Source: an uncultured archaeon (GTDB lineage Archaea > Asgardarchaeota > Jordiarchaeia > Jordiarchaeales > Jordiarchaeaceae). From it: a DNA stretch of 32,000 bases. The notes beneath the pieces were generated by a model. It saw only the letters and a program-made list of their open reading frames with translations. It was not told the origin of the DNA and did no database searches. Numbering within the stretch: position 1 is the first letter of the stretch; every line of letters begins with the position of its first letter. Made by a program: the position numbers and the translations under genes. This document shows positions 10,973-32,000 of the stretch, one piece after another. The stretch spans positions 1-32,000 of the forward strand of contig CAZECW010000188.1 in NCBI GenBank assembly GCA_964510585.1, in the 5' to 3' direction.

Positions 10973-11002
10973 TTATTGGTACCAATAAGTAAAGTATATA
11001 TA
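10973..11002 (+). promoter_or_regulatory. hdr operon promoter: 16-bp perfect palindrome, BRE-like spacer, TATA box
   Basis: TTATTGGTACCAATAA at 10973-10988, GTAAAG, TATATATA at 10995-11002, GGAGG SD, then TTG at 11071. Confidence 0.6.
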
Positions 11003-12455: not shown

Positions 12456-12471
12456 ATTGGGAAGAGGGAGA

Positions 12472-13812
12472 GTGATTCGTCTGGAAAAAGTTAGCTCGGT
12501 TACTGTCATTGGTGGTGGAGTTGCTGGAATACAGGCAGCATTAGAACTGGCGAATTTAGGAATGCTTGTTTATTTGGTTGAGGAAAATCCCAGTATCGGG
12601 GGGCGGATTATTGAACTTAACTGTTCTTCCTGCCGCCTTGAAGTTCCTATGGATTGTTCCATCTGTCCTGTTATACCTAAAATAGTTGAGTGCTACCACC
12701 ATCCAAATATTAAGATTCTTACAAACGCCGAAATTATGGGTATTTCTGGTTCTGCTGGAAACTTCCAGATAAATGTTTTAAAAAAGCCACGTTTCATTAA
12801 TGAAGACAAATGCACTGCGTGCGGTGCCTGTACCGAAAAGTGCCCAGTTGAGATTTTTGATGCATTTAATATGGTTAAAGGAAGGAAGAAGGCTATCCAC
12901 TTTCCCCTCCCTCAAGCATTTCCTCAGGTTCCAGTTATTGATAGAGAGAATTGCTTGCATTTTAGGAGTGGAACCTGCGAAAAATGTTCAGAGGTCTGCC
13001 CTACTACGGCAATAAATTTCAATGATGAAGATATGATAATTGGAGTTAAAAGTGAAGCTATAATTCTTGCTACGGGGCTTTCTCTTTTTGATCCAAGCGG
13101 AATAAGGGAATATGGGTACAAGAGATACAAGAATGTCATCACCATTCTTGACCTTGAACAAATGACTAGTATACACGGCCCCACGGGAGGTAAAATTGTT
13201 AGGATTTCAGACAAAAAAGAGCCAAAAAGTATAGCCTTCATTCAATGCGTGGGGTCAAGAAGCAGAAGGACAAATAACAATTTCTGCTCTGGAGTATGTT
13301 GCATGTACACTGCTAAGGACGCTGCCCTAGTAAAAATTTTAAAACCGGAAACAGAAGTGTATGTTTTCTACATTGATCTCCGAGTCTTTGGGAAAGGTTA
13401 CCAAGAACTTTTCAACAAAGTTAGAAACAGTCTAGGTGTGAAATATATTAGGGGCCGTCCAGGGGGAATATGGGAAGACCCGAAAACAAGGGACCTTATT
13501 ATTAGTTTTGAAAACACGCTCACCCAGAGGGTGGAGAAGTTGAGGGTGGATATGGTGGTTTTATCTCCTGCCTTACTGCCTCATCCTAATAATAGGAAAC
13601 TGGCTGAATTTTTAGGCCTGGAACTAGATGAACATGGTTTCTTTAAAAGTCCAAATCCAGTGTCGCAACCTTTTGACACCACCATAAAAGGCGTTTTTAC
13701 CTGTGGTTACTGTAGGGGACCCAGAGGAATATCTGAATCTGCCACTCAAGCTAGTGCCGCCGCGGGAAGGGTTACTGAAACCATTACTTTAGCAAAAATG
13801 GGGAGAAATTAA
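12472..13812 (+). CDS. hdrA: HdrA-like flavoprotein, N-type half (FAD plus inserted 2x[4Fe-4S])
   Basis: VIGGGVAG, CTACGACTEKCP, CEKCSEVCP, QCVGSR, CSGVCCMYTAK. No N-terminal domain or C-terminal ferredoxin. Start uncertain (TTG 12439 or GTG 12472). Confidence 0.88.
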   Translation: MIRLEKVSSVTVIGGGVAGIQAALELANLGMLVYLVEENPSIGGRIIELNCSSCRLEVPMDCSICPVIPKIVECYHHPNIKILTNAEIMGISGSAGNFQINVLKKPRFINEDKCTACGACTEKCPVEIFDAFNMVKGRKKAIHFPLPQAFPQVPVIDRENCLHFRSGTCEKCSEVCPTTAINFNDEDMIIGVKSEAIILATGLSLFDPSGIREYGYKRYKNVITILDLEQMTSIHGPTGGKIVRISDKKEPKSIAFIQCVGSRSRRTNNNFCSGVCCMYTAKDAALVKILKPETEVYVFYIDLRVFGKGYQELFNKVRNSLGVKYIRGRPGGIWEDPKTRDLIISFENTLTQRVEKLRVDMVVLSPALLPHPNNRKLAEFLGLELDEHGFFKSPNPVSQPFDTTIKGVFTCGYCRGPRGISESATQASAAAGRVTETITLAKMGRN

Positions 13813-13814
13813 GC

Positions 13815-15509
13815 ATGAGTGAAGCTAACCTGAACCAAGAGCCGAGAATTGGAATATTCCTATGCGATTGCGGAACAAATATCAGTAGCATCATTGATGT
13901 TCCTCAAGTCATTGAAGCTTCAAAAGGGATATCTGGGGTTAAATTTGTGGAGAGAGATAGCTCACTCTGCTCCAGCGCTGGAACAAAAAAGATAAGGGAA
14001 ACTATAGAGAGGAGCGGCGTAGACCGAGTTGTCTTCGCAGGTTGCTCACCCAAAAACTATGGTTCACTTTTCGAATCTGTTTGTCAAAAAGCAGGGATAA
14101 ACAGGTATCTTGTTGCCTTTGCAAACATCAGGGAGCAGTGCGCCTGGGCACATCAGGACAGGCCAAAGGAAGCCACCATAAAGGCTATTAATACTGTGCA
14201 AATGGCCGCGGCGAGACTTCAAAAATCGGAGCCCCTGCAAGAATTGGAAATAGAGGTACACCCCTCCACACTGATTATTGGAGGTGGCATATCGGGGATG
14301 ACCGCAGCCCTCTGCTTAGCCAATCAGGGCTTCAGCGTACTATTAGTGGAGAGGGAGCCCGACATTGGTGGCATGTTAAACAAACTTTATAAATTGTATC
14401 TTACCAATCAGGAAGTTTCAGAAATTCTGAATCCAGTTATCCAGTCGGTGAGAAACCATAAAAACATCAGAATCCTCACATCGGCATCTGTAAGGGAGGT
14501 AGAAGGATACTTCGGTGACTTTGAAGTTACAATTTCTGTTAATGGGGGAACCGAAAAATTTAGGGCGGGAACCATAATTCTGGCAACTGGAGCAGGGACA
14601 TTTGAACCATTTGGAATGTACGGTTATGGGAAACATGAGGGAGTTGTTACCCAGCTTGAATTGGAGCAAATTCTAAAACAAGGGAAGCTGAAACATTTAG
14701 AAAAAGTGGTTATGATACAATGCGTGGGAGCCCGGGAAGAAAAGGGATTAACCTACTGTTCCCGAATATGCTGTATGGTTGCAATTAAAAACGCCACTCT
14801 GATAAAGAAATTGTATCCCGACTGTGAGGTTTACATCATTTACCGCGATCTGCAAACCTACGGTAAGGAGAACGAGGAGTACCAGTCAAAGGCAAGAGAG
14901 CTGGGAATAAGATTTATAGAATATACTCCGGAGCGCCGCCCAGAAGTATTCCCCAACGGAAATGGAAAAGTAGGGGTGAGAGTTTATCACGCTTTGTTGG
15001 GAGAAACCTTAACCATTAATAGTGATTTGGTTGTCCTATCCACTCCGCTCATCCCCAACGCGGATGGAAAAGAAATTGCAAAAATTCTCAAAGTCCCTTT
15101 GGGCCCCGATGGCTTCTTCAAAGAAGCTTATATGGAAATGCGATCAACAGCCTTCGGTGTTAATGGCATCTATGTCTGTGGAACTGCCCAGGGACCCAAA
15201 AGTATTGATGAGAGTATAACCCAAGCATACGCCGCAGCCGCTCTAGCAGCAATCCCCATGCAACAGAAAAAAGTGAAGATACCAGCCATGACCGCTGAGG
15301 TTAATGAAGAGTTATGCATTGGATGCCAACTCTGCCTGGATCTTTGCCCAGTCCACGCCATCACCTTTGCGGAAGGAAAATCCATGGTAATAGAAGCCAT
15401 ATGCCGAGGTTGCGGTACATGCGCCGCTGCTTGTCCCTCCAAAGCAATAGCCGTGAAGGGCTTCAAGGATGAACAGATACTTGCGGAGGTGGAGGCAGCC
15501 CTTAAATAA
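13815..15509 (+). CDS. hdrA: HdrA-like flavoprotein, C-type half (N-domain, FAD, C-terminal ferredoxin)
   Basis: FLCDCG, LCS, AGCSP, REQCAW, IIGGGISG, CSRICC, CIGCQLCLDLCP, CRGCGTCAAACP. No inserted ferredoxin. Confidence 0.88.
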   Translation: MSEANLNQEPRIGIFLCDCGTNISSIIDVPQVIEASKGISGVKFVERDSSLCSSAGTKKIRETIERSGVDRVVFAGCSPKNYGSLFESVCQKAGINRYLVAFANIREQCAWAHQDRPKEATIKAINTVQMAAARLQKSEPLQELEIEVHPSTLIIGGGISGMTAALCLANQGFSVLLVEREPDIGGMLNKLYKLYLTNQEVSEILNPVIQSVRNHKNIRILTSASVREVEGYFGDFEVTISVNGGTEKFRAGTIILATGAGTFEPFGMYGYGKHEGVVTQLELEQILKQGKLKHLEKVVMIQCVGAREEKGLTYCSRICCMVAIKNATLIKKLYPDCEVYIIYRDLQTYGKENEEYQSKARELGIRFIEYTPERRPEVFPNGNGKVGVRVYHALLGETLTINSDLVVLSTPLIPNADGKEIAKILKVPLGPDGFFKEAYMEMRSTAFGVNGIYVCGTAQGPKSIDESITQAYAAAALAAIPMQQKKVKIPAMTAEVNEELCIGCQLCLDLCPVHAITFAEGKSMVIEAICRGCGTCAAACPSKAIAVKGFKDEQILAEVEAALK

Positions 15510-15532
15510 GGATTAAGAAGAGGTTAGCAAAA

Positions 15533-15961
15533 ATGGAGGAAGGAGAGGAAACAAGGAAGTTTGAGCCCAAAATATTAGCTTTTACCTGCAATTGGAGCAG
15601 TTACTCCAGTGCTGACCAGGCGGGAATAAGCAGAACATTTTATCCGCCCAATGTTCAGATAATTAGAGTTATGTGTGCTGGTCGAGTGGATCCACTATTT
15701 GTGGTGAAGGCTTTCTTAAATGGGGCTGATGGGGTGATCATTGCTGGATGCCACCCTAACTATTGTCGATATAGTGGGGGAAATAGACAAGCAGAAATCA
15801 GAGTCAAATTTTTGAAAATGCTCATGGAAGAGATTGGTGTTGACCCGGCGCGGCTGCGGATAGAATGGATATCTGCTATGGAGGGTGGAAGATTCGCACA
15901 GGTAGTTCAGGAAATGGTTGGAGAACTTAAAAAGATGGGACCATTACTTTTAAGAAAATAA
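15533..15961 (+). CDS. mvhD: MvhD/FlpD-like [2Fe-2S] subunit (copy 1)
   Basis: FTCNWSSY, RVMCAGRVDP, GCHPNYC, RLRIEWISA. Confidence 0.9.
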   Translation: MEEGEETRKFEPKILAFTCNWSSYSSADQAGISRTFYPPNVQIIRVMCAGRVDPLFVVKAFLNGADGVIIAGCHPNYCRYSGGNRQAEIRVKFLKMLMEEIGVDPARLRIEWISAMEGGRFAQVVQEMVGELKKMGPLLLRK

Positions 15962-15976
15962 TGGGAGGTAGACTGC

Positions 15977-17278
15977 TTGGATGGGAAAGAGGGTGTTCTA
16001 ATAATAGGTGGAGGCATAGCGGGAATCCAGGCCGCACTAGATGTAGCCGATCAGGGAGTAAAAGCCTATGTAGTTGAAAGTACGCCCAGTGTGGGTGGAC
16101 ATATGGCTATGTTGGATAAGACTTTCCCCACACTTGACTGCTCAGCTTGTATCCTCACTCCAAAAATGGTGGATGTGGGCAGGCATCCCAATGTTGAGCT
16201 TCTAACTTATTCCGAGGTAAGAAAAGTTAAGAGGGAGGGTAGAGGTTTTGAAGTAGAGATTGTGAAGAAGCCGAGATACGTTGACATATCCAAGTGTACG
16301 GGGTGCGGGGTGTGTGCTAGATACTGCCCAGTAGAAGTTTCTGACGATTTCAATGCAGGAATGGATGTTCGGAAGGCGATTTATGTGCCTTTCCCCCAGG
16401 CAGTTCCACTAAAATACACTATAGATGAAGAGCATTGTATTAGGTGTGAGCTCTGTAAAAGGATATGTGAATCCATAGGGGCTGGAGCGGTAAACTTTGA
16501 TCAGGTGGCTGAGGAGGTTAACCTCAATGTGGGGGCGATTATTATTGCGACTGGCTATAAACCTTTTGACGTTAGACAAAAGAAGGCGTATGGCTACGGA
16601 AAATATCCGAACGTTTTAACGGCCTTGGAGCTTGAGAGATTACTCTCCGCCGCCGGACCAACTGCTGGACATATTTTGAGACGCTCAGATGGCTGTATAC
16701 CTAAGAGGGTTGCTTTTGTTCAGTGTGTAGGTTCAAGAGACTCACACCACGGCTATCCATACTGCTCCAGAGTCTGTTGCATGTATGCCATAAAGGACAG
16801 TATACTGCTAAAAGAGCATATACCTGATGTTGATGTTACCATCTTTTACATGGATATTAGAACCTATGGTAAAGGCTTTGAAGAACTATATCAGAGGGCG
16901 AAGGAGGAGTTCAAGGTTCGATTCAGGCGGGGAAGGGTGGCAAGAATTTACGAGATTCCTGAAACCCACAACCTGGTAGTGAGGGTTGAAGACACTGAGA
17001 CCGGAGAGATTTTACAGGAAGAATTTGAAATGGTGGTTCTTTCTGTGGGTTTAGCACCAGCAGACGGAATAGCAGAGCTGAGCAAAATTCTGGAAGTGCC
17101 TCTGGACGAGTATGGTTACATAGAGGGAGCAGATGCAAAGATTGATACTGTTTCAACAAAAGTTCCGGGTGTTTTTGTAGCGGGAACAGCTTTGAGTCCC
17201 AAGGATGTCCCAGATAGTGTATCTGAAGCCAGCGCGGCGGCTATGAAGGCGGTAACGTTCCTGAGAGGGAGGAAGTAG
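15977..17278 (+). CDS. hdrA: HdrA-like flavoprotein, N-type half
   Basis: [52 protein letters not shown] start after GGAGGT. Confidence 0.9.
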   Translation: MDGKEGVLIIGGGIAGIQAALDVADQGVKAYVVESTPSVGGHMAMLDKTFPTLDCSACILTPKMVDVGRHPNVELLTYSEVRKVKREGRGFEVEIVKKPRYVDISKCTGCGVCARYCPVEVSDDFNAGMDVRKAIYVPFPQAVPLKYTIDEEHCIRCELCKRICESIGAGAVNFDQVAEEVNLNVGAIIIATGYKPFDVRQKKAYGYGKYPNVLTALELERLLSAAGPTAGHILRRSDGCIPKRVAFVQCVGSRDSHHGYPYCSRVCCMYAIKDSILLKEHIPDVDVTIFYMDIRTYGKGFEELYQRAKEEFKVRFRRGRVARIYEIPETHNLVVRVEDTETGEILQEEFEMVVLSVGLAPADGIAELSKILEVPLDEYGYIEGADAKIDTVSTKVPGVFVAGTALSPKDVPDSVSEASAAAMKAVTFLRGRK

Positions 17279-17279
17279 T

Positions 17280-19229
17280 ATGGAGGAAGAATTACGTGTT
17301 GGGTGTTACATTTGCCATTGTGGACTTAACATTGCAGGAGTAATTGATGTGGAAAAGGTGGCGGAAGCCACGGGAAAACTTCCGAACGTAGTGATTGCGA
17401 GGCACTACGTTTACATGTGTTCGGAGCCCGGTCAGGAACTAATAAAAAAGGATATCAAAGACTACAATTTGAACAGGGTTGTAGTGGCTTCCTGCTCTCC
17501 CCAAATGCATGAATCCACATTCCGCTCCGTTGTGGAGGAGGCTGGTTTAAACCGGTATCTTTTCGAAATGGCTAATCTTCGAGAGCAATGTTCATGGGCC
17601 CATGCAAATAATCCCGTGAAGGCCACTGAGAAGGCGAAGGACATATTGAGAATGGCTGTTGCTAAGGTTCGCCTGCTTCAACCCTTAGAGAAGAGGGAGG
17701 TTCAGGTTAAACCCGCAACTCTGATTGTGGGTGGAGGAATAACTGGAATCCAAGCAGCTTTGGAATTGGCTAATAGGGGATTTTCCACTTATCTTGTTGA
17801 GAAGTTACCTTACCTTGGGGGAAGAGTGGCTCAGTTAAACAGGGTAATTTTAACCAATGAGAGAGCCTCAGAAATTTTAAAACCAATGTTAAACGCTTTA
17901 ACAGGGAATCCGAACATTGAAGTGTTCACCAACACCGAAATTGAGGAAATAGGTGGCTACATTGGCAACTTTGAAATAAAGCTGAAGATAGGACCCCGTT
18001 TCGTTAACCAGAAATGCAACTTGTGCGGGAAATGCCTGGAGGTGTGCCCCGTAGAGGTACCAGACGAATTTAACTTTGGATTAAACAACAGAAAGGCCAT
18101 ATATATTCCCCACAGTGACTCTGTGCCCAGAATTCCTACTATTGATGGGGCTAACTGTACACGCTGTGGGGAGTGCATCAAGGTCTGCGAGCAAAATGCT
18201 ATTTCTTTGGACAGCGAACCACAAAACAAAAACATTTCGGTGGGAACAATTATTCTCGCCACCGGCTATGATCCCTATTTGCCCCAAGGCGAGTATGGCT
18301 TTGGAGAGTATGAAGATGTAATAACTCAGTTCCAACTGGAAAGAATGCTCAGCAACAATGGTCCCACCAATGGGCGGTTAGTAAAACCTTCCAATGGAAA
18401 GGTGCCTAGAAACGTAGTTTTTATTCTGTGTGTGGGTTCCAGAAATCCCCATAGGCAATATTGCTCCAGAGTTTGCTGCTCTGTGGCATTAAAAAACGCT
18501 ATGCTCATCAAAAAAGAGTATCCTGAAACGCAGGTCTCCATTCTTTACCGAGATATCAGAAGCTTTGGTAAAGGACAGGAAGAACTTTATGGAGAGGCGC
18601 GACTAGCGGGCATAAACTTTTTCAGGTATTCACCAGATAACCCCCCAAAGGTTTCCAGACTAGATAACTCGCAGATTCAGGTGGAGGTCTATGAATCCAT
18701 ACTGGGAATGAACATTGAGATTCCCGCGGATCTCCTAATTCTTGCTGAGGCTATGACTCCCCGAAAGGACTCCGCGGAGTTAGGTTCAAAAGTGGGGGTC
18801 ACGCGTACACCAGATGGCTTTTTCCGTGAGGCGCACCCTAAGCTCAAGCCCCTCGACACAAATTCTGAAGGAATATACCTTGCTGGCGCCGCCCAGTTCC
18901 CCAAAGATATCACCGAGTGTATAGTTCAAACATGCGGGGCAGCTGCGAGGGCCTCAATTCCTATGTCTAAGGGTAAAGTGGACGTGGAGCCCATAGTAGC
19001 CTCGGTGAACGAAGATCTTTGTATCGAGTGCGGAACCTGCCAGAGTATATGTCCTTATGGAGCAATAAAGAAGGGTGAGAATGGAAAAGCGCAAGTCACA
19101 GAGATTTTATGTAAGGGTTGTGGTTCCTGCGCCGCAAGCTGCCCAGCAAGGGCCATTACAATATTTCATTTTACAGATGAGCAAATCCTAGCTCAATCAC
19201 TCGCCGCATTAGGGAGGGGAGAACCATGA
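17280..19229 (+). CDS. hdrA: HdrA-like flavoprotein, C-type half that retains the inserted ferredoxin
   Basis: ICHCG, MCS, SCSP, REQCSW, VGGGITG, CNLCGKCLEVCP, CTRCGEC, CSRVCC, CIECGTCQSICP, CKGCGSCAASCP. Lacks the TxDCxxC motif. Confidence 0.9.
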   Translation: MEEELRVGCYICHCGLNIAGVIDVEKVAEATGKLPNVVIARHYVYMCSEPGQELIKKDIKDYNLNRVVVASCSPQMHESTFRSVVEEAGLNRYLFEMANLREQCSWAHANNPVKATEKAKDILRMAVAKVRLLQPLEKREVQVKPATLIVGGGITGIQAALELANRGFSTYLVEKLPYLGGRVAQLNRVILTNERASEILKPMLNALTGNPNIEVFTNTEIEEIGGYIGNFEIKLKIGPRFVNQKCNLCGKCLEVCPVEVPDEFNFGLNNRKAIYIPHSDSVPRIPTIDGANCTRCGECIKVCEQNAISLDSEPQNKNISVGTIILATGYDPYLPQGEYGFGEYEDVITQFQLERMLSNNGPTNGRLVKPSNGKVPRNVVFILCVGSRNPHRQYCSRVCCSVALKNAMLIKKEYPETQVSILYRDIRSFGKGQEELYGEARLAGINFFRYSPDNPPKVSRLDNSQIQVEVYESILGMNIEIPADLLILAEAMTPRKDSAELGSKVGVTRTPDGFFREAHPKLKPLDTNSEGIYLAGAAQFPKDITECIVQTCGAAARASIPMSKGKVDVEPIVASVNEDLCIECGTCQSICPYGAIKKGENGKAQVTEILCKGCGSCAASCPARAITIFHFTDEQILAQSLAALGRGEP

Positions 19230-19996
19230 GTTATGAGCCAAGAATAGTTGGGTTTTTGTGCAATTGGTGTGCCTACTCAGCCGCAGACTTAGCTGGCATG
19301 AGTAGAATTAGTTACCCTCCAACCATACGTATTGTGAGGTTGATGTGTAGTGGCAGAATTGACCCAGTAATCATAGTGGACACTCTCGCTAATGGCGCCG
19401 ATGGAGTTTTAATTGCAGGATGCCTTCCGGGTGATTGCCACTACGTGGAGGGCAACCTCAACGCAGAAGTTAGAATAAAGATTTTGAAAAATTTGATAGC
19501 CAAAACTGGATTGGAGCCAGAAAGATTACGTCTGGAATGGATCCCAGCTTCGGGTGGAACTCTTTTTGCAGAGGTCGTCAAAGACTTCACAAACCAGTTA
19601 ACCTCCTTGGGCCCATCACCTCTAGCTGGAGAGAACCCGGACAAAAACATACTAGAACTATTGGCAGTGGTCAGGGACACTGTTGCCGATGTACGTTTAC
19701 GAGAACTGGTAGGCAAGAAGAGACAAATTACTGAGAAAGGAAACGTATACGGAGAAGTGATATCTAAGGAAGAGTTTGAGAAGAGACTAACTGATTACAT
19801 TGATGACGAATTTGACCGACATAAAATACTCCGTATGGTAAAAGAACGCTCCCTATCAGTTAGGGAGCTATCTGAAAGACTGAATCTGAGCCCCCAAAGG
19901 GTGTTGCGCCACATTGCAGCTATGCGTCGGAAAAACCTGGTGGCAGTTGAAAGAATTGAGGGAGTGTCCCCTCTATACACGGCTTTGGAGGTGTGA
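19226..19996 (+). CDS. mvhD: MvhD-like [2Fe-2S] domain fused to a helical plus winged-helix C-terminal domain
   Basis: aa 1-133: FLCNWC, MCSGR, GCLPGDCHY. aa ~198-252: ILRMV..RSLSVRELSERLNLSPQRVLRHIAAMRRKNLV, a wHTH pattern. Confidence 0.88.
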   Translation: MSYEPRIVGFLCNWCAYSAADLAGMSRISYPPTIRIVRLMCSGRIDPVIIVDTLANGADGVLIAGCLPGDCHYVEGNLNAEVRIKILKNLIAKTGLEPERLRLEWIPASGGTLFAEVVKDFTNQLTSLGPSPLAGENPDKNILELLAVVRDTVADVRLRELVGKKRQITEKGNVYGEVISKEEFEKRLTDYIDDEFDRHKILRMVKERSLSVRELSERLNLSPQRVLRHIAAMRRKNLVAVERIEGVSPLYTALEV

Positions 19997-22900
19997 ATAT
20001 GGAGGATAAGGTCGGAGCGGTACTAGTTGTGGGAGGCGGAATAGCAGGAATCCAAGCCGCACTTGATTTGGGAGACTCCGGCTTCAAAGTCTACTTGATG
20101 GATGAGACGCCCTCAATTGGAGGTGTAATGGCTCAGCTGGATAAGACCTTCCCCACAAATGATTGCGCTATGTGTATTCTCGCACCAAAGCTGGTTGGTT
20201 GCGGAAGACACCCCAACATTCAACTTTTAACTAACGCCTCCATAAAGGGAGTCGAAGGCAGCGCAGGCCACTTCAAAGTCACCATCACTAAGAGACCCAG
20301 ACGTGTTAATGAGAGTAAGTGCACTGGGTGCGGTGTGTGTGCCAGATGGTGCCCTGTTGAGGCTATCGACGAGTTCAATGAAGGACTGAGTAATCGGGGA
20401 GGAATATTCGTTAGGTACCCACAGGCAGTTCCCTTAATATACTCAATTGATAAAGAGAAATGTATAGGATGTGGGATATGTAGCGAGGTGTGCAGGGCGA
20501 AGGCAATCGAATATGAGCAGGAGGAGCAAGACCTAGTTTTGGATGTGGGCTCCATAATACTTGCACCTGGATTTGAGGAATTTGAGGCGGAAGCCCTCCA
20601 GGAATATGGTTATGGACGCTTCCCTAATGTGGTTTCAAGTATAGAGTTTGAACGCATCCTTAGTGCTTCTGGACCCTATGGCGGTTTAGTCATCCGCCCC
20701 TACGATGGGGATATTCCCAAAAATATTGCGTTTATTCAGTGTGTTGGCTCTCGTGACACCCGTCTGGGAAACAGTTACTGCTCCGCTGTGTGCTGTATGT
20801 TTGCAATTAAGGAAGCGGTGATTGCTAAGGAACATACTCAGACCCCCTTGGATTGCACCATATTTTTCATAGATATGCGTTCCTACGGAAAGGAGTTCGA
20901 CGGCTACTATAAGAGGGCTGAGGAAGAATATGGAGTGAGATTTGTTAGATCTAGGGTTGCTAGCATAGAGGAGATACCCAAGTCACACAATCTTCTTGTG
21001 AAGTATATTGAAGACGGTGAGCCCAAGGAGGAAGAATTTGACCTTGTGGTACTCTCAGTTGGAATGAAACCACCTAGAAATGCCCGGGAAATAGCGGAAA
21101 AACTGGGAATAGAACTTAACGAGTATGGGTTCTGCAAAACAGGCGAGTTTACCCCACTTGAAAGCTCGGTGCCAGGTATCTATGTTTGTGGAGCATTCTC
21201 TTCCCCCAAGGACATTCCGGACAGTGTAGCACAAGCAAGCGGCGCCGCCGCCAAAGCGGGAAGCATCATATCCCCGGCGAGGGGAAAACTAATCTCTAGA
21301 AAGCAGTATCCACCTGAGAAAAACGTGGAGGGGAAGGAGCCTCGAATTGGAGTGTTTGTTTGTCACTGTGGGATAAATATTGGTGGAGTAGTTGACGTGC
21401 CCAGAGTAGTGGAGTATGCTAAAACACTTCCAAATGTGGTATACGCGGAGCACAACCTTTACACTTGCTCTCAAGATACTGGTGCACGCATAGTGGAAGC
21501 CATAAAGGAACATGACCTTAACCGCGTTGTGGTGGCATCATGTACCCCAAGAACACATGAACCCCTCTTCAGAGACACAATTAGGGAAGGGGGGTTAAAC
21601 CCCTACCTCTTTGAAATGGCAAACATAAGGGATCAATGCTCCTGGGTACACATGCTTGAGCCTGAGAAGGCAACACAGAAAGCCATAGATCTAGTGAGGA
21701 GTGCTGTGGCAAAAGCCAGACTACTTAAACCCCTTCAAAAACCAATGATAAAGATTATACCCGCGGGTCTAGTGATTGGTGGGGGATTATCGGGAATGAC
21801 TGCGGCTTTGGAACTTGCAGAACAAGGATTCGAGGTACACTTGGTGGAGAAAGAGAAACAGCTTGGAGGAAATCTCCGTAGAATAAAATTCCTTCTCAAC
21901 AGCGACAAACCCAGCGAAAGACTCGAATCTTTAATAAGAAGAGTAGAAGAGAACGGGAAAATACATGTTTACACAGAAGCGGAAGTTGTGGGTGTTGAGG
22001 GATATGTTGGAAACTTTAAGACAACTATAATAGCCAACGGGGAGAGAAGGGAGATTCAGCATGGGGTAATAATTGTAGCTACGGGTGGGACTGAGTATAA
22101 ACCCATTGAGTATTTTTATGGAATGGATGACCGGGTACTAACCCAGTTAGAATTGGAGGAAAAGTTGGCAAACGGGGGGTTCAGCGCGGATACAGTGGTT
22201 ATGATACAGTGTATTGGCTCAAGAAATGGTGAACACCCGAGCTGCTCCAGAGTTTGTTGTTCCAGTGCAATTAAGAACGCTTTAAAAATTAAGGAGTTAA
22301 ATCCAAAAACAGAGGTCTATGTGCTTTATAGAGATATAAGAACTTATGGTTTCCGGGAGAAATATTATCAGGAAGCTCAGAGGAGGGGAGTAATATTCAT
22401 TCGCTACGATGAAGATCACAAACCTGAGGTGACAAATGAGGGAACACTCAGGGTACTGGTCAGGGATCCCATCATCAAGAAGAAAATCGAAATCGAGCCC
22501 GACCTCATTGTATTAAGTGCGGGGATACATCCAAACCGCGATAACAAAAATTTGGCTCAAATGCTAAAAGTTCCCCTGAGCAAGGAGGGATTTTTCCTGG
22601 AGGCGCATATGAAGCTTCGCCCAGTTGATTTTGCCACAGAGGGAATTTTTCTCTGTGGGCTGGCACAGTCACCAAAATTCATAGATGAATGTATATCTCA
22701 AGCTTGTGGCGCAGCTGCTCGAGCCGCCACCATTCTATCCAAAGAAGCACTGGAAATAGAGGGGGCAATAGCTAAGGTTGACGAAGATCTCTGCGCTGCA
22801 TGTAAAGTCTGTGTATCTATCTGTGAGAGTGGAGCTGCGCAAATCGTGGAAAAGAATGGGAGGCGTGTTTCAAACATAATAGAAGCCCTCTGTAAGGGGT

Positions 22901-23004
22901 GTGGGCTTTGTAGCGCCGCCTGTCCCTCGGGAGCGATAACCATAGAGCATTTTAATGATAAACAGATTCTGGCTCAGATTAGAGCTTTGCTGGGAGGTGG
23001 ATAA
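19993..23004 (+). CDS. hdrA: Double-module HdrA (fused N-type and C-type halves, two FAD sites)
   Basis: Two GxGxxG motifs ([14 protein letters not shown]), PTNDCAMC, internal FVCHCG domain, C-terminal [11 protein letters not shown] and [12 protein letters not shown]. Start GTG 19993 or ATG 19999. Confidence 0.92.
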
Positions 23005-23005
23005 T

Positions 23006-23434
23006 GTGGCGGAGTTCGAACCCAAAATAGTGGCTTTTTGCTGTAGCTGGTGTAGCTACGCCGGCGCCGATTTAGCGGGAGTGAGTAGGTTTCAGTATCC
23101 CACAAATGTTAAAATAATCAGGGTTATGTGCAGCGGCAGAATAGACCCTACATTTGTACTTGAAGCCTTCAAAAACGGTGCCGATGCAGTACTAGTGGCA
23201 GGATGCCACATACCATCTGATTGCCACTATTTAACAGGAAACTTGAGAGCCCAACGTAGAATTGCTCTGACCAGAAATCTTTTGAAGCAGCTCGGAATAG
23301 AGCCGGAACGGTTAAGGTTGGAGTGGATTTCTGCTTCGGAGGGGGACAAATTTGCGGCGGTTGTGAAGGAAATGACTCAAAGGATAAAGGAACTTGGCCC
23401 AAGCCCACTCAGTGGTGGAGGTGATGGAAAATGA
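23006..23434 (+). CDS. mvhD: MvhD/FlpD-like [2Fe-2S] subunit (copy 3)
   Basis: [37 protein letters not shown] 23006 follows GGAGGTGG. Confidence 0.93.
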
Positions 23435-23952
23435 CTGAAGAAGTCATCAAACTGTCAGAGGCTGATCGCCAATTCAAATATGAGCTCAGCCATATGCCGG
23501 AAATAGAGAACCTCATGCTCTGTATGCAGTGTGGGACGTGTACCGCGGATTGTCCTGTAGCTCGCTTCAGCGGGACATACAGGCCTCTTAAGATACTGAG
23601 AATGGTTCTTTTTGGGTTAAAATCGGATGTTCTTTCAGCTGGTGAACTTTGGCTTTGCGCTTCTTGTTACACTTGTACTGACCGCTGTCCGAGGGGTGTA
23701 AGGTTTTCCAGCTTATTGAGGGAGCTCAGAAATCTTGCTGTGAAGGAGGGATATATTCCAGATGGTTTTAGGGAATTGGCCTCTAACATTTTAGAAACGG
23801 GTTACGCTTACGAAATATCAGAGTCCAGAATGAAGAAGAGGGAGACTTTAGGGCTTCCTCCACTACCAAAGGCTAACCCCAAAAAGCTTGCTAGACTCGC
23901 AGAAATTGCTGGATTCCTAAAAAAGGCAAAAAAGGTGGATGGAGGGAAGTAA
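23431..23952 (+). CDS. hdrC: HdrC-like (copy 2)
   Basis: [12 protein letters not shown] and [17 protein letters not shown]. Confidence 0.9.
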
Positions 23953-24838
23953 AATTTCGGATTCAACTTACTTGCTGTATTTAGGCTGTCTAATTCCCTA
24001 TAGGGTTCCCAGCTATGAGGTTGCAGCGAGAAAGGTTCTTAGCAGGTTGGACGTCGAGTTAGTGGACATGCTCGAGTTTAACTGCTGCGGTCTCCCCATG
24101 GATCCCATTAGTCACGAGGTTATGATGGTTTTGGCTGCTTGGAACCTTTGTTTAGCGGAGAGGGAGGAACTTGACATATTGACTCTTTGTCCCGGCTGCA
24201 GTGGCACCCTCCACAAGGTGAACACCATCCTTAGAGAGGAGGAGAATGTTAGGGAAAAAATTAACAACTTCTTGAAAAGGGATGGAATGGAGTATAAGGG
24301 AAATATAGAAGTTAAACATCTGGTTCAGGTACTAGTGGAGAAGGTAGGCACTGAGAAACTTAAGGAAAAAATTGTAAAACCACATAAAGGTCTCAAAGTG
24401 GTGGAGCATTATGGCTGCCACATTCTGCGGCCAAAGGAGTACATGAAATTTGATGATTCTGAAAACCCCACAATTTTGAGACAATTGATTGAATCTACGG
24501 GAGCCACATGTCTGGATTACGTGAACAAAAGGGAGTGCTGCGGCTACCCAATCATGTCCATAGACGAAAAAATTCCTTTTCAACTAGCTGGAGACAAACT
24601 TAAGCACATGAAGGAAGTGGGGGCCGATGCCCTAATTACCATTTGTCCTTCCTGCTACCTGGCTTTTGACCTTAATCAGTCCCGAATAGAGAAACTTTTT
24701 GGTGAAAAATTTGAGCTCCCAGTGCTTCACTACCCTGAGCTTCTAGCGCTGGCTTTGGGAATTGAGCCAGACGAGCTGGCTTTAAATGATCACAGAGTTA
24801 GGGTTTCAAAAATATTGAAAAATGGTTCGGGAGGATAA
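23939..24838 (+). CDS. hdrB: HdrB-like (copy 2)
   Basis: YLGC / NCCG / CPGC and HYGCH / ECCG / CPSC. Confidence 0.9.
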   Translation: MEGSKISDSTYLLYLGCLIPYRVPSYEVAARKVLSRLDVELVDMLEFNCCGLPMDPISHEVMMVLAAWNLCLAEREELDILTLCPGCSGTLHKVNTILREEENVREKINNFLKRDGMEYKGNIEVKHLVQVLVEKVGTEKLKEKIVKPHKGLKVVEHYGCHILRPKEYMKFDDSENPTILRQLIESTGATCLDYVNKRECCGYPIMSIDEKIPFQLAGDKLKHMKEVGADALITICPSCYLAFDLNQSRIEKLFGEKFELPVLHYPELLALALGIEPDELALNDHRVRVSKILKNGSGG

Positions 24839-24845
24839 ACCCGCA

Positions 24846-25190
24846 ATGTCTGAAGATTTAAGAAAAAGACTGGAGGCGGCTGTTGGAGTTCTGGGAGATA
24901 TTCGTGTCAGATGGCTAATTGGGCGAAGCCAAGCCCTATTGGAATCAGGAACCATAACCAAAGAAGGGTTAGAGCAACTTATGAGGAAAATTATGAGAGA
25001 GGAGCTGGAAAGATGGCTTATTATGAATGAAATCGAAAGACAGGGACCACTATCAGTCAAAGACCTTTCCGGGGCAACCCGACTTCCAGAACAAACAGTG
25101 GTGAAGCACCTACTAGCTCTAAGAAGAAATGGGCGGATTACCTTCGCGGGTGAGAAAGAGAACATGCACCTATATGATTTGGTGAGATAA
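24846..25190 (+). CDS. Stand-alone helical plus winged-helix protein, paralog of the MvhD2 C-terminus
   Basis: D.R.R.L.G, EELERWLI, GPLSVKDLS..TRLPEQTVVKHLLALRRNGRI. ATG 24846 follows GGAGG. Confidence 0.8.
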   Translation: MSEDLRKRLEAAVGVLGDIRVRWLIGRSQALLESGTITKEGLEQLMRKIMREELERWLIMNEIERQGPLSVKDLSGATRLPEQTVVKHLLALRRNGRITFAGEKENMHLYDLVR

Positions 25191-25224
25191 AGCAGAGAAT
25201 AAAATTGAAGAGTGGTGATTCAAA

Positions 25225-25770
25225 ATGACTGAAGCAAATTCTTCTGATGAAAAGCAAACAGTCATCAAACTCCAAGATTTGGATACTAGTCTACAGGAGG
25301 AGATTAGCAAAATTCCGGGATGCGAAAAACTTATGCTCTGCTTCCAGTGTGGCACATGCAGTGCCGACTGTCCAGTTGGGAGACACCTCAATGAGTACAA
25401 GCCTAGGTTAATAGCTATGATGACCAAGCTTGGAATGAAGCAAGCGCTCTTTCAGGGAGATTTATTGTGGCTGTGCACCCAGTGTTACACGTGCCTTGAA
25501 CGTTGCCCCCAGAATGTGGAGCTGGCGGAGATAATTTCCGCTCTGCGAGGAATCGCGGCCAGGGAAGGTTACCTACATCCCTCTTTGAAGAAGGTTATTG
25601 AAGCCCTGGCCAATCATGGTTACATTTACGAGATAACTGAATTCATAGAGGAAGATAGGGAAATGAGGGAGCTCCCACCTGTTCCCAAAGTTAACATTGG
25701 CGAAGTTAGAAAAATTATGAGAATGACAGGAATAGACAAACTTGTAGGAATAGAACTGGAGGAGGACTAA
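25225..25770 (+). CDS. hdrC: HdrC-like (copy 3)
   Basis: CFQCGTCSADCP and LWLCTQCYTCLERCPQ. Confidence 0.9.
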   Translation: MTEANSSDEKQTVIKLQDLDTSLQEEISKIPGCEKLMLCFQCGTCSADCPVGRHLNEYKPRLIAMMTKLGMKQALFQGDLLWLCTQCYTCLERCPQNVELAEIISALRGIAAREGYLHPSLKKVIEALANHGYIYEITEFIEEDREMRELPPVPKVNIGEVRKIMRMTGIDKLVGIELEED

Positions 25771-25776
25771 AAATTT

Positions 25777-26643
25777 ATGAGGTACGCATTTTTTGTGGGG
25801 TGCACAACATTAGCCAGGCTTCCAAGCTACGAGGTTTCTACAAGAAAAGTAGCCGAGGCTTTGGGTGTGGAACTCTTGGATATGGAGGGAGCGGGATGTT
25901 GCGGAACCACTTATTTAAAATGTATAGAACCCAGAACGGCGCTTGCCTTGGCTGCTCGGAACATATCCATAGCGGAGGATATGGGGGTTAACATTGTCAC
26001 TTTGTGTAACGGTTGCACAGAGGTTCTCACAGATGCCAACAACACGCTAAAAGAAGAAGGGGAACTCAGAGAAGATGTGAACAGCATTCTTGCAGAGGTG
26101 GATCGGGAGTTTAGGGGGAAAGTGGAGGTTAAACATTTTGTGCGAATGTTTCTTGAGGATTTGGGAATCGATAAAATTCGCGCCCGTGTGTCAAACCCTC
26201 TGGAGGGTTTAAGAGTGGCGGTGCATTACGGATGCCACTTATTAAAGCCTTTCAAGATAATGAATTTTGATGACCCTGAAGACCCCACTTCCCTAGATGA
26301 ACTAGTCAACATTACGGGGGCAGTGAGTGTAGATTATCCGGGTAAGCTGGACTGTTGCTCCGCCCCACTGCTGACGATAAAACGAAGAAACGAGTTGGCC
26401 ACTGAAATAGCTAGGGAAAAACTATCAACAGTTAAGAAGTATGCCGATATAATGATTACCGTTTGCCCATTTTGCTACTTGATGTATGAGCAGAGTCAAA
26501 TGCCCCCAAACAATCCCATCGATATTCCCATAGTGCATTATTCTCAGCTCCTAGGTTTAGCGATGGGAATAGACTATCAAGATCTAGCCCTCAACGAAAA
26601 CCGCATAGACGCCTCGGTAATAAAAAATTTTCAAAATAGGTAA
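25777..26643 (+). CDS. hdrB: HdrB-like (copy 3)
   Basis: FVGC / GCCG / CNGC and HYGCH / DCCS / CPFC. Confidence 0.9.
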   Translation: MRYAFFVGCTTLARLPSYEVSTRKVAEALGVELLDMEGAGCCGTTYLKCIEPRTALALAARNISIAEDMGVNIVTLCNGCTEVLTDANNTLKEEGELREDVNSILAEVDREFRGKVEVKHFVRMFLEDLGIDKIRARVSNPLEGLRVAVHYGCHLLKPFKIMNFDDPEDPTSLDELVNITGAVSVDYPGKLDCCSAPLLTIKRRNELATEIAREKLSTVKKYADIMITVCPFCYLMYEQSQMPPNNPIDIPIVHYSQLLGLAMGIDYQDLALNENRIDASVIKNFQNR

Positions 26644-28232: not shown

Positions 28233-28595
28233 TAAACCAACAAAGGCAGCAAGCTATTAAAAGCTTTGCGAATGTGAAGCTGAAGGAATGAAAATAATTT
28301 CGGAACCGGTTCAAGGCACGAAACTATTTAGTTATTGGGAAGGGAGAAAAATCTGTATTCCGTGTAGATATAGGTCTGTGGACTAACTTCGATGTGAAAA
28401 TATATTTTTCATAAAGGATTTTTTGGGTAGTCATCATAATTTTTGAGGCGTACCTTTTTTTGGGAAATGTTTATTTTTGTAAAAGGAAAGATTAGACACC
28501 AATTGGCTAGGGAAGTAATCAGAAACAATAAAAAAAGGGTAGAAATTATTTGTCCATGGATACCCGTCTGAAACATTTTGGACATGGTGGTGTGC

Positions 28596-29105
28596 ATGGC
28601 GGGAGCTGAAGCAGAAAAAACAGTTGTAGATGCGGAAAATCTGGACTCTTCATTTCTGAGAAAAGTAATTAAACATCCAGGCGGCGAACAGATTCTTGTC
28701 TGTTTCCAGTGTGGAGTCTGCAGCTCCAGCTGTCCTTTAAGACTGATAAATCCTGAGTATAATCCTAGAAAAATTGTGAAAAAAACCATTCTGGGTATGA
28801 AGGATCAAGTGCTTTCCAGCGATTTTGTCTGGTTCTGCGCGGATTGCAATGCATGTACCGAACGTTGCCCTCAGGGAGTTAATCCTTCTGAGGTTATGAA
28901 GGCTATTAAGAATGTGGCTGTGGAGGAGGGAATCGTTCCAGCGGCGATTAAGAAAATTGTGGAGAACTTAGAGAAGCATGGGAGGGTTTATCCCTTGGAA
29001 GAGTTTACTCAGGAGGAGAGGGAGATGCTGGATTTACCTGAACTTGAACCAGATGTTAAAATTTTCAAGATTGACAGAAAAAAACTGCTGGGTGAACATG
29101 CTTGA
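28596..29105 (+). CDS. hdrC: HdrC-like (copy 4)
   Basis: CFQCGVCSSSCP and VWFCADCNACTERCPQG. ATG 28596 after GGTGGTG is preferred over TTG 28578. Confidence 0.9.
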   Translation: MAGAEAEKTVVDAENLDSSFLRKVIKHPGGEQILVCFQCGVCSSSCPLRLINPEYNPRKIVKKTILGMKDQVLSSDFVWFCADCNACTERCPQGVNPSEVMKAIKNVAVEEGIVPAAIKKIVENLEKHGRVYPLEEFTQEEREMLDLPELEPDVKIFKIDRKKLLGEHA

Positions 29106-29986
29106 GTGAGAGAGAGTTTGCATTGTTTTTGGGATGCACCATACCTGTGAGATGCTTGGGTTACGAGGTGGCTACAAGGAGGGTGGCGGAGGAGCTGGGA
29201 ATTAAACTTGTTGATCTTAGTTTTTCCTGCTGCGGTTATCCCTTAAAAAATGTAGATGTGATTGCCGCTAAATCTATGGCTACAGCGAACCTGGCTCTCG
29301 CAGAATCTAAGAACCTCAATATTCTTACTATATGTAGTGCTTGCGCCGGAACTTTGACCGAGGCTAGTGTTAATAGAGAGAATCCGGTGGGTGAACAAGT
29401 TAAAAAGGAGTTGGGAAAGCAGGGGTTAACCTTTAAGGGGTTGGTTTGGGTCAAGCACTTTGTGAGATACCTGTATGAGGATTACGGTGTGGATAAGATA
29501 AGGGAACATGTGAAAAACCCTCTGAAAAACCTTAGGGTGGCTATACACTATGGCTGTCATTATCTGAGACCGTCTGAAATATATGATGAATTTGATGATC
29601 CTGAACACCCAAAGAGCGCGAAAGAGATAATTGAGGCTTTGGGTGCCACAGTGGTTAATTACAGGGGTCAGCTCGATTGTTGTGGTGGGGGCACTTTGAC
29701 TTTCGATCAGAAGTTGGGTGCTATATTGGCTAAGAAGAAACTGGACAATGTCAAGAAGGCCAACGTGGATGCCTTGGTTTTATTCTGTCCCTTCTGCTCC
29801 ATAATGTATGACGGCCACCAAAGGTTTATTGAGGAACAATTCGGTTGCGAGCCCTACAACATTCCGGTTCTCTTCTTGCCTCAGATTATGGGCTTAGCGT
29901 TTGGCATAGATCCAAAGGAGTTGGGATTTGAATACAACAAAGTAGATGTCCAACCCCTACTGGACAAAATAGGGGTGAAGTGGTGA
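29102..29986 (+). CDS. hdrB: HdrB-like (copy 4)
   Basis: FLGC / SCCG / CSAC and HYGCH / DCCGGG / CPFC. Confidence 0.9.
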   Translation: MSEREFALFLGCTIPVRCLGYEVATRRVAEELGIKLVDLSFSCCGYPLKNVDVIAAKSMATANLALAESKNLNILTICSACAGTLTEASVNRENPVGEQVKKELGKQGLTFKGLVWVKHFVRYLYEDYGVDKIREHVKNPLKNLRVAIHYGCHYLRPSEIYDEFDDPEHPKSAKEIIEALGATVVNYRGQLDCCGGGTLTFDQKLGAILAKKKLDNVKKANVDALVLFCPFCSIMYDGHQRFIEEQFGCEPYNIPVLFLPQIMGLAFGIDPKELGFEYNKVDVQPLLDKIGVKW

Positions 29987-29992
29987 TTTATT

Positions 29993-32000
29993 ATGATAGG
30001 CGTCTTCATTTGTGAGTGTGGTGGAAACATCGGAGACGTAGTTGACGTCAACGCTGTAAAGGAAGCCATCCAAAAGATTCCCGATGTTAAAACCGTGAGA
30101 ATCAATCGTTTCCTATGCTCCAAACTGGGCCTAAAAATGATAGTAGACTCTGTCAAAAAACAGAACCTAGACCGGGTGGTGGTTGCGTCGTGTTCCCCAC
30201 ATATGCATGAAGAAACCTTTAGAGAAACAGTGGTTGAAGCGGGACTAAACCCCTACATGTTTGTACACACAAATATTCGGGAGCAGGACTCCTGGGTCAC
30301 GAAGGATAAAAGGAAGGCTACAGAAAAGGCCATAGCCATAATATCAGGTGCGGTGGGCAGAGCAAGGAAATTGGAGCCCCTCCAAAAAACTAGAGTAGAA
30401 ATCTCCAAGGATGTTATGGTTATCGGCGGCGGAATAGCGGGAATAACAGCGGCACTACAGTTGGCGAACTCCGGATACCACGTTATAATGGTGGAAAAAA
30501 AACCCAGCATAGGAGGCAGGATGGCTCAGCTAAGCAAGGTTTTTCCCACCCTAGACTGTGCACCCTGCATCCTCAGTCCAAGAATGGCAGACGTGGACAA
30601 AAACCCAAACATAACACTACTAACCAGCTCAGAGGTGGAAAAGGTATCCGGTGGACCGGGAAACTATGAGGTGAAGGTTAGGATTAAGCCCCGAGGAGTG
30701 GACGTTGAGAAGTGTTTAAGGTGTGGCAAGTGTGAGAAGGTCTGCGAAGTGGAGGTTCCAGACGAGTATGAGGCGGGACTATACACCCGCAAAGCAATAT
30801 ACTTGCCATTCGCACAAGCTGTTCCCGCCGCTTACGCCATCGACTTTGAAAACTGTAGAAAATGCGGAACCTGCCAAAAAGAGTGCCCCGCCGAAGCCAT
30901 AAACATCAACCAGGAGGAGAGAGTGGAGACCTTCAATGTGGGGGCAATAATAGTTACTACTGGCTACGACCTCCTAGATAAGGGTGAGATAGAGAGATAC
31001 AAGGTTGACAAGGAATCCACCATAACTTCGCTCCAGCTAGAGAGACTTATAGAGAATGAATTGGCAGCAGGGGAAGTTCTTAAAAATTCCAAGGGTAAAC
31101 GCATAAAAGATGTGGCATTCATTTTGTGTGTAGGCTCCAGGAATCCACATAAGGGGGTTTCCTACTGCAGCAAGGTCTGCTGTCCCTACGCGGTTAAGGA
31201 AGCGATACTGCTGAAGAAGACTTTGCCCTATCTCCGCATATGGATTTACTACATTGACTTGAGGATGGCTGGCCGGGGATACGAGGAACTCTACAGGCAG
31301 GCGCGGGAAATGAACATAAACTTCATACACGGAAAGCCCGCAGAAGTGAGTGTAGATCCAGACTCTGGAAGGCTTCAGATTGTATCTGAAGATATTGACA
31401 CGGGCCAAATAATAAGGAACTCTTTGGATCTCATTGTTTTATGCCCAGCAATGATTCCTTCAAGCGACCTGGCAGAATTGGCGGGTAAACTCAACATATC
31501 CACGGGTGAGGACGGCTTTATCGCAGAAAAACACATTAAACTTAATCCAGTATCCACCCTGAGGGAAGGCATATATGCTGCGGGAACAGCCCTTGGCCCC
31601 AAGGATATCAGAGAATCCGTGGTAGACGCCAGATCCACTGCAGCCCAAGCAATAGAATTCTTGGGAGAAGGATACAAGGACATTTCACCAATAAAAGCTA
31701 GACTGGTAGGTGAATGCCGAGGTGTGGGGGAGTGTGTGAGAGTATGTCCTCATAATGCCATAACATTAAACGAAAAGACGGGTAAAGCGGAGATAAACAT
31801 ATTGGCCTGTAATGGTTGTGGAGCCTGCGTCCCCGCGTGTCCTAATAATGCTTTACAATTGGCTCATTACACAAAGGAGCAAATATTGGAGGAAGTAAAG
31901 GGACTTCTATCTGTGCCCACAGAGGATATTAGGATAATTGGATTCTTTGGGGACTCTACTGCTTACCCTGCGGCAGATGCTGCCGGCGTCTCGCGGCTAA
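29993..32000 (+). CDS. hdrA: HdrA with C-terminally fused MvhD-like domain; truncated by the window edge and absent from the ORF track
   Basis: Hand translation, open for 669 codons: MIGVFICECGGNI, FLCS, ASCSP, REQDSW, IGGGIAG, PTLDCAPC, CLRCGKC, CRKCGTCQKECP, CSKVCCPYAVK, CNGCGACVPACP, then IRIIGFFGDSTAYPAADAAGVSRL. Confidence 0.9.
   Translation, partial: MIGVFICECGGNIGDVVDVNAVKEAIQKIPDVKTVRINRFLCSKLGLKMIVDSVKKQNLDRVVVASCSPHMHEETFRETVVEAGLNPYMFVHTNIREQDSWVTKDKRKATEKAIAIISGAVGRARKLEPLQKTRVEISKDVMVIGGGIAGITAALQLANSGYHVIMVEKKPSIGGRMAQLSKVFPTLDCAPCILSPRMADVDKNPNITLLTSSEVEKVSGGPGNYEVKVRIKPRGVDVEKCLRCGKCEKVCEVEVPDEYEAGLYTRKAIYLPFAQAVPAAYAIDFENCRKCGTCQKECPAEAININQEERVETFNVGAIIVTTGYDLLDKGEIERYKVDKESTITSLQLERLIENELAAGEVLKNSKGKRIKDVAFILCVGSRNPHKGVSYCSKVCCPYAVKEAILLKKTLPYLRIWIYYIDLRMAGRGYEELYRQAREMNINFIHGKPAEVSVDPDSGRLQIVSEDIDTGQIIRNSLDLIVLCPAMIPSSDLAELAGKLNISTGEDGFIAEKHIKLNPVSTLREGIYAAGTALGPKDIRESVVDARSTAAQAIEFLGEGYKDISPIKARLVGECRGVGECVRVCPHNAITLNEKTGKAEINILACNGCGACVPACPNNALQLAHYTKEQILEEVKGLLSVPTEDIRIIGFFGDSTAYPAADAAGVSRL

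Follow-up and report, generated by a model that had tools for sequence, protein, structure and literature searches.

A winged-helix module carried by a long MvhD adaptor and by a free-standing protein of an Asgard archaeal hdr operon is a probable docking arm of BamF type

A 32,000-nt stretch of DNA from an uncultured archaeon of the Jordiarchaeaceae (Asgardarchaeota; assembly GCA_964510585.1, contig CAZECW010000188.1, positions 1 to 32,000, hereafter the window) contains a long hdr operon in which one MvhD protein carries a C-terminal extension and a separate 114-amino acid (aa) protein corresponds to that extension alone. The module common to both proteins (MOD) probably serves as a protein-docking arm of long, BamF-type MvhD adaptors that joins redox modules, with the free copy as a stand-alone arm; this reading draws on sequence comparison and on analogy with a solved complex. 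The MvhD domain itself is an electron relay that exchanges electrons with an HdrA unit. The contribution of the window consists of three architectural states of the module in one genome and a recurring MOD-hdrC-hdrB unit.

In agreement with the preliminary description of this DNA, the gene at 19226-19996 encodes an intact MvhD with extra C-terminal residues, the whole protein comprising 256 aa and the extension about 120 aa, of which the module accounts for about 115. Residues 7-129 matched the Pfam family FlpD/MvhD (PF02662) over profile positions 1-123 of 123 (E 1.7e-50, 170.6 bits versus a cut-off of 22.3), and the MvhD part aligned without gaps with the solved MvhD 5odc_D (E 9.8e-45). Cysteines C12, C15, C41, C66 and C71 of the fusion match cysteines of 5odc_D, and the first Cys of the CC pair in 5odc_D is replaced by Leu in the fusion. 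Within the extension, residues ~198-243 exceeded the Pfam gathering scores of HTH_24 and HTH_5 (30.3 bits for the latter, cut-off 22), whereas the free copy fell below both cut-offs, just so for HTH_24 (20.7 bits, cut-off 21.9) and with 19.0 bits for HTH_5.

The suggestion, made previously from alignment by eye, that the extension is homologous to the 114-aa protein was borne out over the full length of the latter by BLASTP, by an alignment of 23 sequences and by a module profile. Thus, BLASTP of the fusion against the open reading frame (ORF) at 24822-25190 gave 31% identity over 84 residues (153-235 versus 24-102, E 6e-10), the 23-sequence alignment joined fused and free forms end to end with an invariant D.R.LR.L.G motif, E..R and a C-terminal Tyr in common, and the profile matched the window copies with E values of 2.9e-50 (fused) and 4.2e-43 (free). 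The start of the free copy at 24846 is supported by a GGAGG sequence 11-16 nt upstream, the preceding hdrB stop lying at 24836-24838, and a single hdrC-hdrB pair separates the free copy from mvhD copy 3, as had been noted. That the free copy arose by recent duplication of the fused module nearby was considered and rejected because the two are only 26-31% identical and are placed in distant, well-supported parts of the tree.

The free copy was modelled by AlphaFold with a 105-sequence alignment of the module, giving a mean predicted local distance difference test score (pLDDT) of 97.2 and a predicted template modelling score of 0.88. In this model, helices 3-16 and 19-34 form a hairpin that is followed by a long helix (39-66) and a short strand, while the C-terminal part consists of helices 71-78 and 82-94 and a beta-hairpin wing at 98-112. 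A single-sequence AlphaFold model of the whole fusion had a pLDDT of 42.8 and was not used. The earlier impression that the C-terminal half resembles a winged helix was confirmed by the AlphaFold model and by Foldseek. Against the PDB, only the last ~60 residues of MOD were matched, best by the Zalpha domain of PKZ (template modelling (TM) score by target 0.90, root mean square deviation (rmsd) 1.6 A) and next by ArsR/SmtB, MarR, Fur and TFE-alpha. Superposition of the model on complete ArsR or MarR chains was poor (rmsd 6-10 A), only the core of ~60 aa being a fit. Among AlphaFold Database clusters, on the other hand, the whole module was matched with TM scores of 0.8-0.92 by free proteins of 109-132 aa, by a segment of a 753-aa unnamed protein, by the C-terminus of an 824-aa 'hydrogenase iron-sulfur subunit' and by the N-terminus of 4Fe-4S proteins. 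Since the PDB matches cover only the last ~60 residues and the AlphaFold Database clusters cover the whole module, MOD as modelled combines a winged helix with an N-terminal helical part peculiar to the family, made up of the two-helix hairpin and the long helix.

A precedent for such an adaptor comes from the cryo-electron microscopy (cryo-EM) structure of BamBCDEFGHI, the class II (tungsten, ATP-independent) benzoyl-CoA reductase of Geobacter metallireducens, in which the MvhD-like adaptor BamF exceeds other MvhDs in length by more than 100 aa, the winged helix of BamF forms an interface with BamI, and a fused HdrA dimer is present as BamE (2026 preprint, 10.64898/2026.04.10.717634). The full gene order bamBCDEFGHI was found in loci among the Thermodesulfobacteriota matches of the module. 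In one of these clusters (L141), Pfam identified an AOR protein (683 aa), an Fe-S protein (182 aa), a CCG protein (404 aa), an HdrA dimer (1044 aa), an FlpD protein with a helix-turn-helix (HTH) domain (254 aa), NuoE-like (150 aa) and NuoF-like (638 aa) proteins and a 2Fe-2S/4Fe-4S protein resembling the N-terminal part of NuoG (247 aa). In hhalign, 111 columns of the module profile were aligned with the BamF-like protein (probability 97.1%, E 7.4e-11). This protein was 40% identical to the whole window fusion over 241 aa (BLASTP, E 1e-60), and the 1003-aa HdrA of the window was 50% identical to the BamE-like protein of a bam cluster over 1007 aa, i.e., its full length. These findings indicate, at the level of sequence, that the MvhD-MOD and 1003-aa HdrA of the window are a close relative of the BamE/BamF pair in a different operon. 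In the fusion and the BamF-like protein alike, more than 100 aa are appended to an MvhD domain and terminate in a winged helix, and both have a fused HdrA dimer of ~1000 aa as partner gene. In contrast with Bam, the ORFs of the window scanned with Pfam (7050-31999) include neither a BamB/C aromatic reductase nor an input module like BamGHI (NuoEFG-like), the adaptor gene is placed between a split HdrA pair and the fused HdrA that it precedes, and the system lacks selenocysteine. In the absence of a BamGHI-like module from the scanned ORFs, the docking partner of the window fusion would have to differ from BamI.

Comparison with the canonical MvhD of MvhAGD-HdrABC (5odc chain D, 7bkb chain F) gave gap-free alignments with the N-terminal 135 residues of the fusion (E 1e-43 to 1e-45), the aligned cysteines being kept and hdrA genes being adjacent in both systems. 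Canonical MvhD, at 130-141 aa, is without an extension whereas the fusion has ~120 residues more, and no hydrogenase is encoded in the window.

The preliminary description had stated that MvhD normally has no DNA-binding domain. The premise that an extension of this kind is unusual did not hold, as MvhD-MOD proteins form a large family. Thus, relatives of 256-263 aa with 58-99% identity were found in more than 120 protein clusters, the named sources of which are Freyarchaeota, Jordarchaeum and Bathyarchaeia. By its closest relatives, the window belongs to the Jordarchaeia/Freyarchaeota within the Asgard archaea. In a search of 1.84 billion representatives with the module profile, 465 clusters reached E <= 1e-3, of which 209 reached E <= 1e-10. 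In ten multi-domain matches analyzed with Pfam, MOD directly followed an MvhD domain in nine, the tenth (P0250) matching no family. The architectures were MvhD-MOD, ferredoxin-MvhD-MOD, HdrA-MvhD-MOD (810 aa), MvhD-MOD-GltD-like (744 aa) and HdrA-MvhD-MOD-ferredoxin-GltD-like (1737 aa), so that in the 744- and 1737-aa proteins MOD stands between MvhD and a ferredoxin or GltD-like module.

Gene neighbourhoods were compared at 74 loci from a scan of one genome per species that was queried with the fused subfamily only, a sample therefore biased by the query pattern to fused proteins with the NVYGE motif. Archaeal sources were Jordarchaeia, Bathyarchaeia, Hadarchaeota, Thermoplasmata, Methanobacteriota, Promethearchaeota, Hodarchaeota, Hermodarchaeota, Odinarchaeota and Archaeoglobi, and bacterial sources were Chloroflexi, WOR-3, Bacillota, Syntrophobacterales and Thermodesulfobacteriota. 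MvhD was present in the same ORF in 71 of 86 module genes. An HdrA gene followed MvhD-MOD in 68 of these 71 cases (at least 900 aa in 57 of the 68), a short MvhD came next after that HdrA in 51, and an HdrA gene preceded MvhD-MOD in 59. The usual order is HdrA, MvhD-MOD, a fused HdrA dimer of ~1000 aa and a short MvhD. Split mvhD and MOD gene pairs occur in Chloroflexi (L049 and L053), and in a separate sample of Thermodesulfobacteriota, 104 of 301 genomes had a module match at E <= 1e-8. Together, the scan and the neighbourhoods upheld the proposal that Hdr systems are accompanied by the module, both fused and free. In two Bathyarchaeia operons (L023 and L026), two tandem repeats of MvhD-MOD and a fused HdrA dimer of ~1010 aa were seen, and long adaptors can therefore be chained. 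A different, recurring cluster was noted in Thermodesulfobacteriota (L117-L127, e.g., L120:4789-16780), where genes for an HdrD-like CCG protein, an HdrA dimer split by selenocysteine, MvhD-MOD, a GltD-like flavoprotein of 555-570 aa and a protein of ~290 aa are directly followed by NuoH, NuoI and NuoL-like membrane-arm genes, which suggests an Hdr-type module replacing NuoEFG of complex I.

A word-based search with the free copy found only 13 close clusters, all at least 62% identical, and the few with names were from Freyarchaeota or Jordarchaeum. In the profile-based tree, the free copy fell into a clade of 17 sequences (support 99/94) of which 15 are free-standing, the fused copy of the same operon being far off. 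As judged from this tree, the free copy is a member of an old, mostly free-standing clade. The order MOD-hdrC-hdrB was found in the window, in four Jordarchaeia/Freyarchaeota genomes (L013-L016), on a metagenome contig (L002) and at L152 and L153; at L158 the order is fused HdrA, short mvhD, MOD and hdrC, and at L155 MOD adjoins a [NiFe] hydrogenase large subunit. A 109-aa ORF beside hdrCB on another metagenome contig (L001, 1.1 Mb), considered as a further free copy, proved to be unrelated.

A profile search of the genome from which the window derives revealed a third strong copy on contig C76 (~15896-17332), where MOD is followed by two [4Fe-4S] domains and FrhB in a protein of 478 aa; all three strong matches in this genome lie within hdr loci. 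In the C76 locus (~13500-17330, L012:7509-11333), an mvhD with two in-frame TGA codons stands directly before MOD-ferredoxin-FrhB, and hdrA has an in-frame TGA at a CxxC position (C-A-I-TGA). These TGAs in hdrA and mvhD are probably selenocysteine codons; HdrA with selenocysteine has been reported for Freyarchaeia (PMC11291895).

Of the roles put forward previously for the module, that of a structural or docking subunit was favoured by the BamF precedent, the fusions and the neighbourhoods. The argument for docking rests on four points: BamF as a precedent, fusion proteins in which MOD stands between MvhD and a ferredoxin-like entry domain, BamE-like HdrA dimers as almost constant gene neighbours, and the pattern of conservation. 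With regard to the last, the best-conserved polar residues (R20, R22, G26, K27, E53, R56 and Y110 in free-copy numbering) are located in the hairpin, long helix and wing, while conservation in the recognition helix is confined to buried hydrophobic positions. Under the docking model, the N-terminal [2Fe-2S] MvhD domain of the fusion would dock into an HdrA unit and relay electrons as MvhD usually does, and the C-terminal module would be an arm tying a second redox module to the adaptor. This second module would most likely be the BamE-like fused HdrA dimer encoded next, or else a ferredoxin-like entry domain, and several Hdr-type bifurcating units could in this way be connected within a single assembly. 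For the free copy, recurrence of the order MOD-hdrC-hdrB suggests recruitment of an HdrCB unit to a short MvhD, most likely the hdrC'-hdrB' unit to short MvhD copy 3 in the window. Free MOD with HdrCB would then be the split equivalent of the MOD-ferredoxin-FrhB and MOD-ferredoxin-GltD fusions. A complex prediction for short MvhD3, HdrC' and free MOD, run without alignments, scored 0.03 and was counted neither way.

Several observations weigh against a docking role. The fold found by Foldseek is a canonical winged helix of DNA-binding type, and both window copies are basic (isoelectric points (pI) 9.0 and 9.6). A perfect 16-bp palindrome at 10973-10988 lies a few bases upstream of a TATA-like TATATATA box, ~85 nt before the first hdrC. 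The comparison with BamF was made with BamF-like proteins of bam clusters rather than with BamF of G. metallireducens, and the BamF-like sequence lacks the D.R.LR.L.G motif seen in the archaeal family. Finally, no NuoE-, NuoF- or NuoG-like protein was detected among the Pfam-scanned ORFs of the window.

The first three of these observations bear on an alternative raised in the preliminary description, according to which the redox state of the complex is coupled to transcription. In such a redox-sensing transcription factor, the winged helix would bind DNA and the [2Fe-2S] cluster of MvhD would sense the redox state of Hdr, with the free copy heterodimerising with or antagonising the fused copy. 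Besides the basic window copies and a palindrome that abuts the TATA-like box of the operon, the nearest solved relatives of the fold bind DNA or Z-DNA (Zalpha, ArsR/SmtB, MarR and Fur), HTH_5 and HTH_24 exceed their cut-offs in the fusion and the free copy is automatically named 'ArsR family regulator' in databases. In the opposite direction, the module is homologous to the BamF extension, which lies at a protein interface in cryo-EM, the module also occurs buried within oxidoreductase fusions of 744-1737 aa, and most members of the family are acidic (median pI 6.1). Both window copies also scored under the cut-off of 55 for the NCBIfam ArsR/SmtB family NF033788 (33.1 bits for the fused and 22.1 for the free copy). 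A winged-helix core is common to MOD and the ArsR/SmtB regulators (HTH_5; NF033788), of which CadC, CzrA, HlyU, SqrR and BigR were structural matches, but the core of MOD is preceded by a two-helix hairpin and a long helix with nothing after the wing, the family architecture of flanking dimerisation helices (alpha1 and alpha5) is not seen, ArsR-family chains superposed with an rmsd of 6-7 A over 78-88 columns, and the genomic and fusion context of MOD is enzymatic, not regulatory. As for the palindrome, it occurs singly in the window, 17 of 100 shuffled sequences gave equally good matches, and at the related L002 locus (~1746-1761) it is degraded, one position being changed symmetrically on both arms and others broken. 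Nothing links the palindrome to the module. In view of the BamF homology, the enzyme fusions, conservation away from the recognition helix and a mostly acidic family, coupling of redox state to transcription was left unsupported and is considered quite improbable.

If MOD were instead an intramolecular stabiliser, packing only on MvhD or on its own HdrA with the free copy doing so in trans for a short MvhD, this would fit the position of MOD immediately after MvhD in the fused proteins examined and the split mvhD and MOD gene pairs (L049, L053 and L158). The winged helix of BamF, however, touches a different subunit, BamI, MOD also occurs N-terminal to ferredoxin-FrhB and ferredoxin-GltD-like modules, and most short MvhDs are without MOD, making this explanation unlikely. 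The conserved surface motifs common to both copies and the presence of the free copy in the same operon would also be expected of an assembly regulator that competes with the fused MOD for a docking site and so modulates which modules couple. The free copy, on the other hand, belongs to a separate, old clade and has its own conserved context before hdrC-hdrB, for which reasons a partner of its own fits better than competition, and regulation of assembly is very unlikely. Equally little weight is given to a broader proposal in which MOD is a general plug that couples BamE-like HdrA dimers to interchangeable partners, i.e., another HdrA unit, HdrCB, FrhB, a GltD-like protein or [NiFe] hydrogenase, with a chain of several bifurcating units in this archaeon, and in which the basic free copy, when unbound from the complex, moonlights as an autoregulator that binds the palindrome.

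A parallel to a docking role of a winged helix is offered by DsrD, a small protein with a Zalpha-like winged helix that is encoded in operons for dissimilatory sulfite reductase. For a long time DsrD was taken to be a DNA-binding protein, until an effect on the enzyme itself was reported. The best solved structural match of MOD is also a Zalpha domain; DsrD is not known to have a counterpart of the N-terminal helical part of MOD or a link to MvhD or HdrA.

Searches of the literature for MvhD with a winged helix, a helix-turn-helix or a C-terminal extension returned only the benzoyl-CoA reductase preprint and an unrelated genome paper from 2011, and the module is not mentioned in the Freyarchaeia genome paper. 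A PDB sequence search gave short MvhDs and weak ArsR-type matches only, no BamF chain being present. Thus, this kind of module is known from a single preprint, and the literature searched contains no description of its archaeal members or of the free clade. The database names 'ArsR family regulator' and 'hydrogenase iron-sulfur subunit' hide what appears to be a conserved docking module, which probably sets the way in which electron-bifurcating units of HdrA type are connected with their partners and which is widespread in Asgard archaea, Bathyarchaeia, Archaeoglobi and Thermodesulfobacteriota. The presence in one genome of three states (joined to MvhD, free-standing ahead of hdrCB, and joined to ferredoxin-FrhB) amounts to evidence of the Rosetta-stone type for a bridge from MvhD to a ferredoxin-like entry domain. 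If correct, this would help to predict the subunit composition of the numerous uncharacterised Hdr-like supercomplexes, including highly expressed ones of Asgard archaea.

The arrangement of the hdr genes was determined from ORFs and Pfam matches (Table 1). The operon occupies 11071-26643 of the plus strand in the order hdrC, hdrB, a split HdrA pair (457 and 564 aa), mvhD1, a second split HdrA pair (433 and 649 aa), the 256-aa MvhD-MOD gene, the 1003-aa double HdrA, mvhD3, hdrC, hdrB, the 114-aa gene, hdrC' and hdrB'. The start of the 1003-aa HdrA gene (19993) overlaps the end of the MvhD-MOD gene (19996).

Table 1. Positions in the window of the two module copies and of neighbouring hdr and mvhD genes
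Feature	Position	Strand	Basis
MvhD [2Fe-2S] adaptor domain, fusion residues 1-135	19226..19630	+	Pfam FlpD; solved MvhD 5odc_D
Fused MOD (helical part and winged helix), residues ~136-256	19631..19996	+	Profile, HTH_24, HTH_5, BamF-like alignment
Free MOD paralog, 114 aa	24846..25190	+	Profile, AF2 (AlphaFold) model, GGAGG, mostly free-standing clade
Fused HdrA dimer, 1003 aa, BamE-like	19993..23004	+	Pfam: two FAD/Fer4 units
Short MvhD copy 3	22955..23434	+	FlpD E 1.8e-56; true start probably near 22997
hdrC-hdrB pair between mvhD3 and free MOD	23431..24838	+	Fer4_8 and CCG domains
hdrC'-hdrB' pair, directly 3' of free MOD	25225..26643	+	Fer4_8 and CCG domains
Split HdrA pair (433 and 649 aa), directly 5' of MvhD-MOD	15977..19229	+	Pfam
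Short MvhD copy 1, after first split HdrA pair	15533..15961	+	FlpD E 9.2e-49

Three equivalents of an HdrA dimer were thus noted at 11071-23434, two of them split (457 + 564 and 433 + 649 aa) and one fused (1003 aa), with an MvhD gene after each. The operon contains three hdrCB pairs, and an additional hdrC-hdrB-hdrA set is present at 28578-31999. Elsewhere in the window, the product of the minus-strand ORF at 7050-7577 is a small GTPase of the Ras family (Pfam Ras, E 2.4e-52), which is in keeping with an Asgard archaeon, and another minus-strand ORF adjoins it at 6323-6856.

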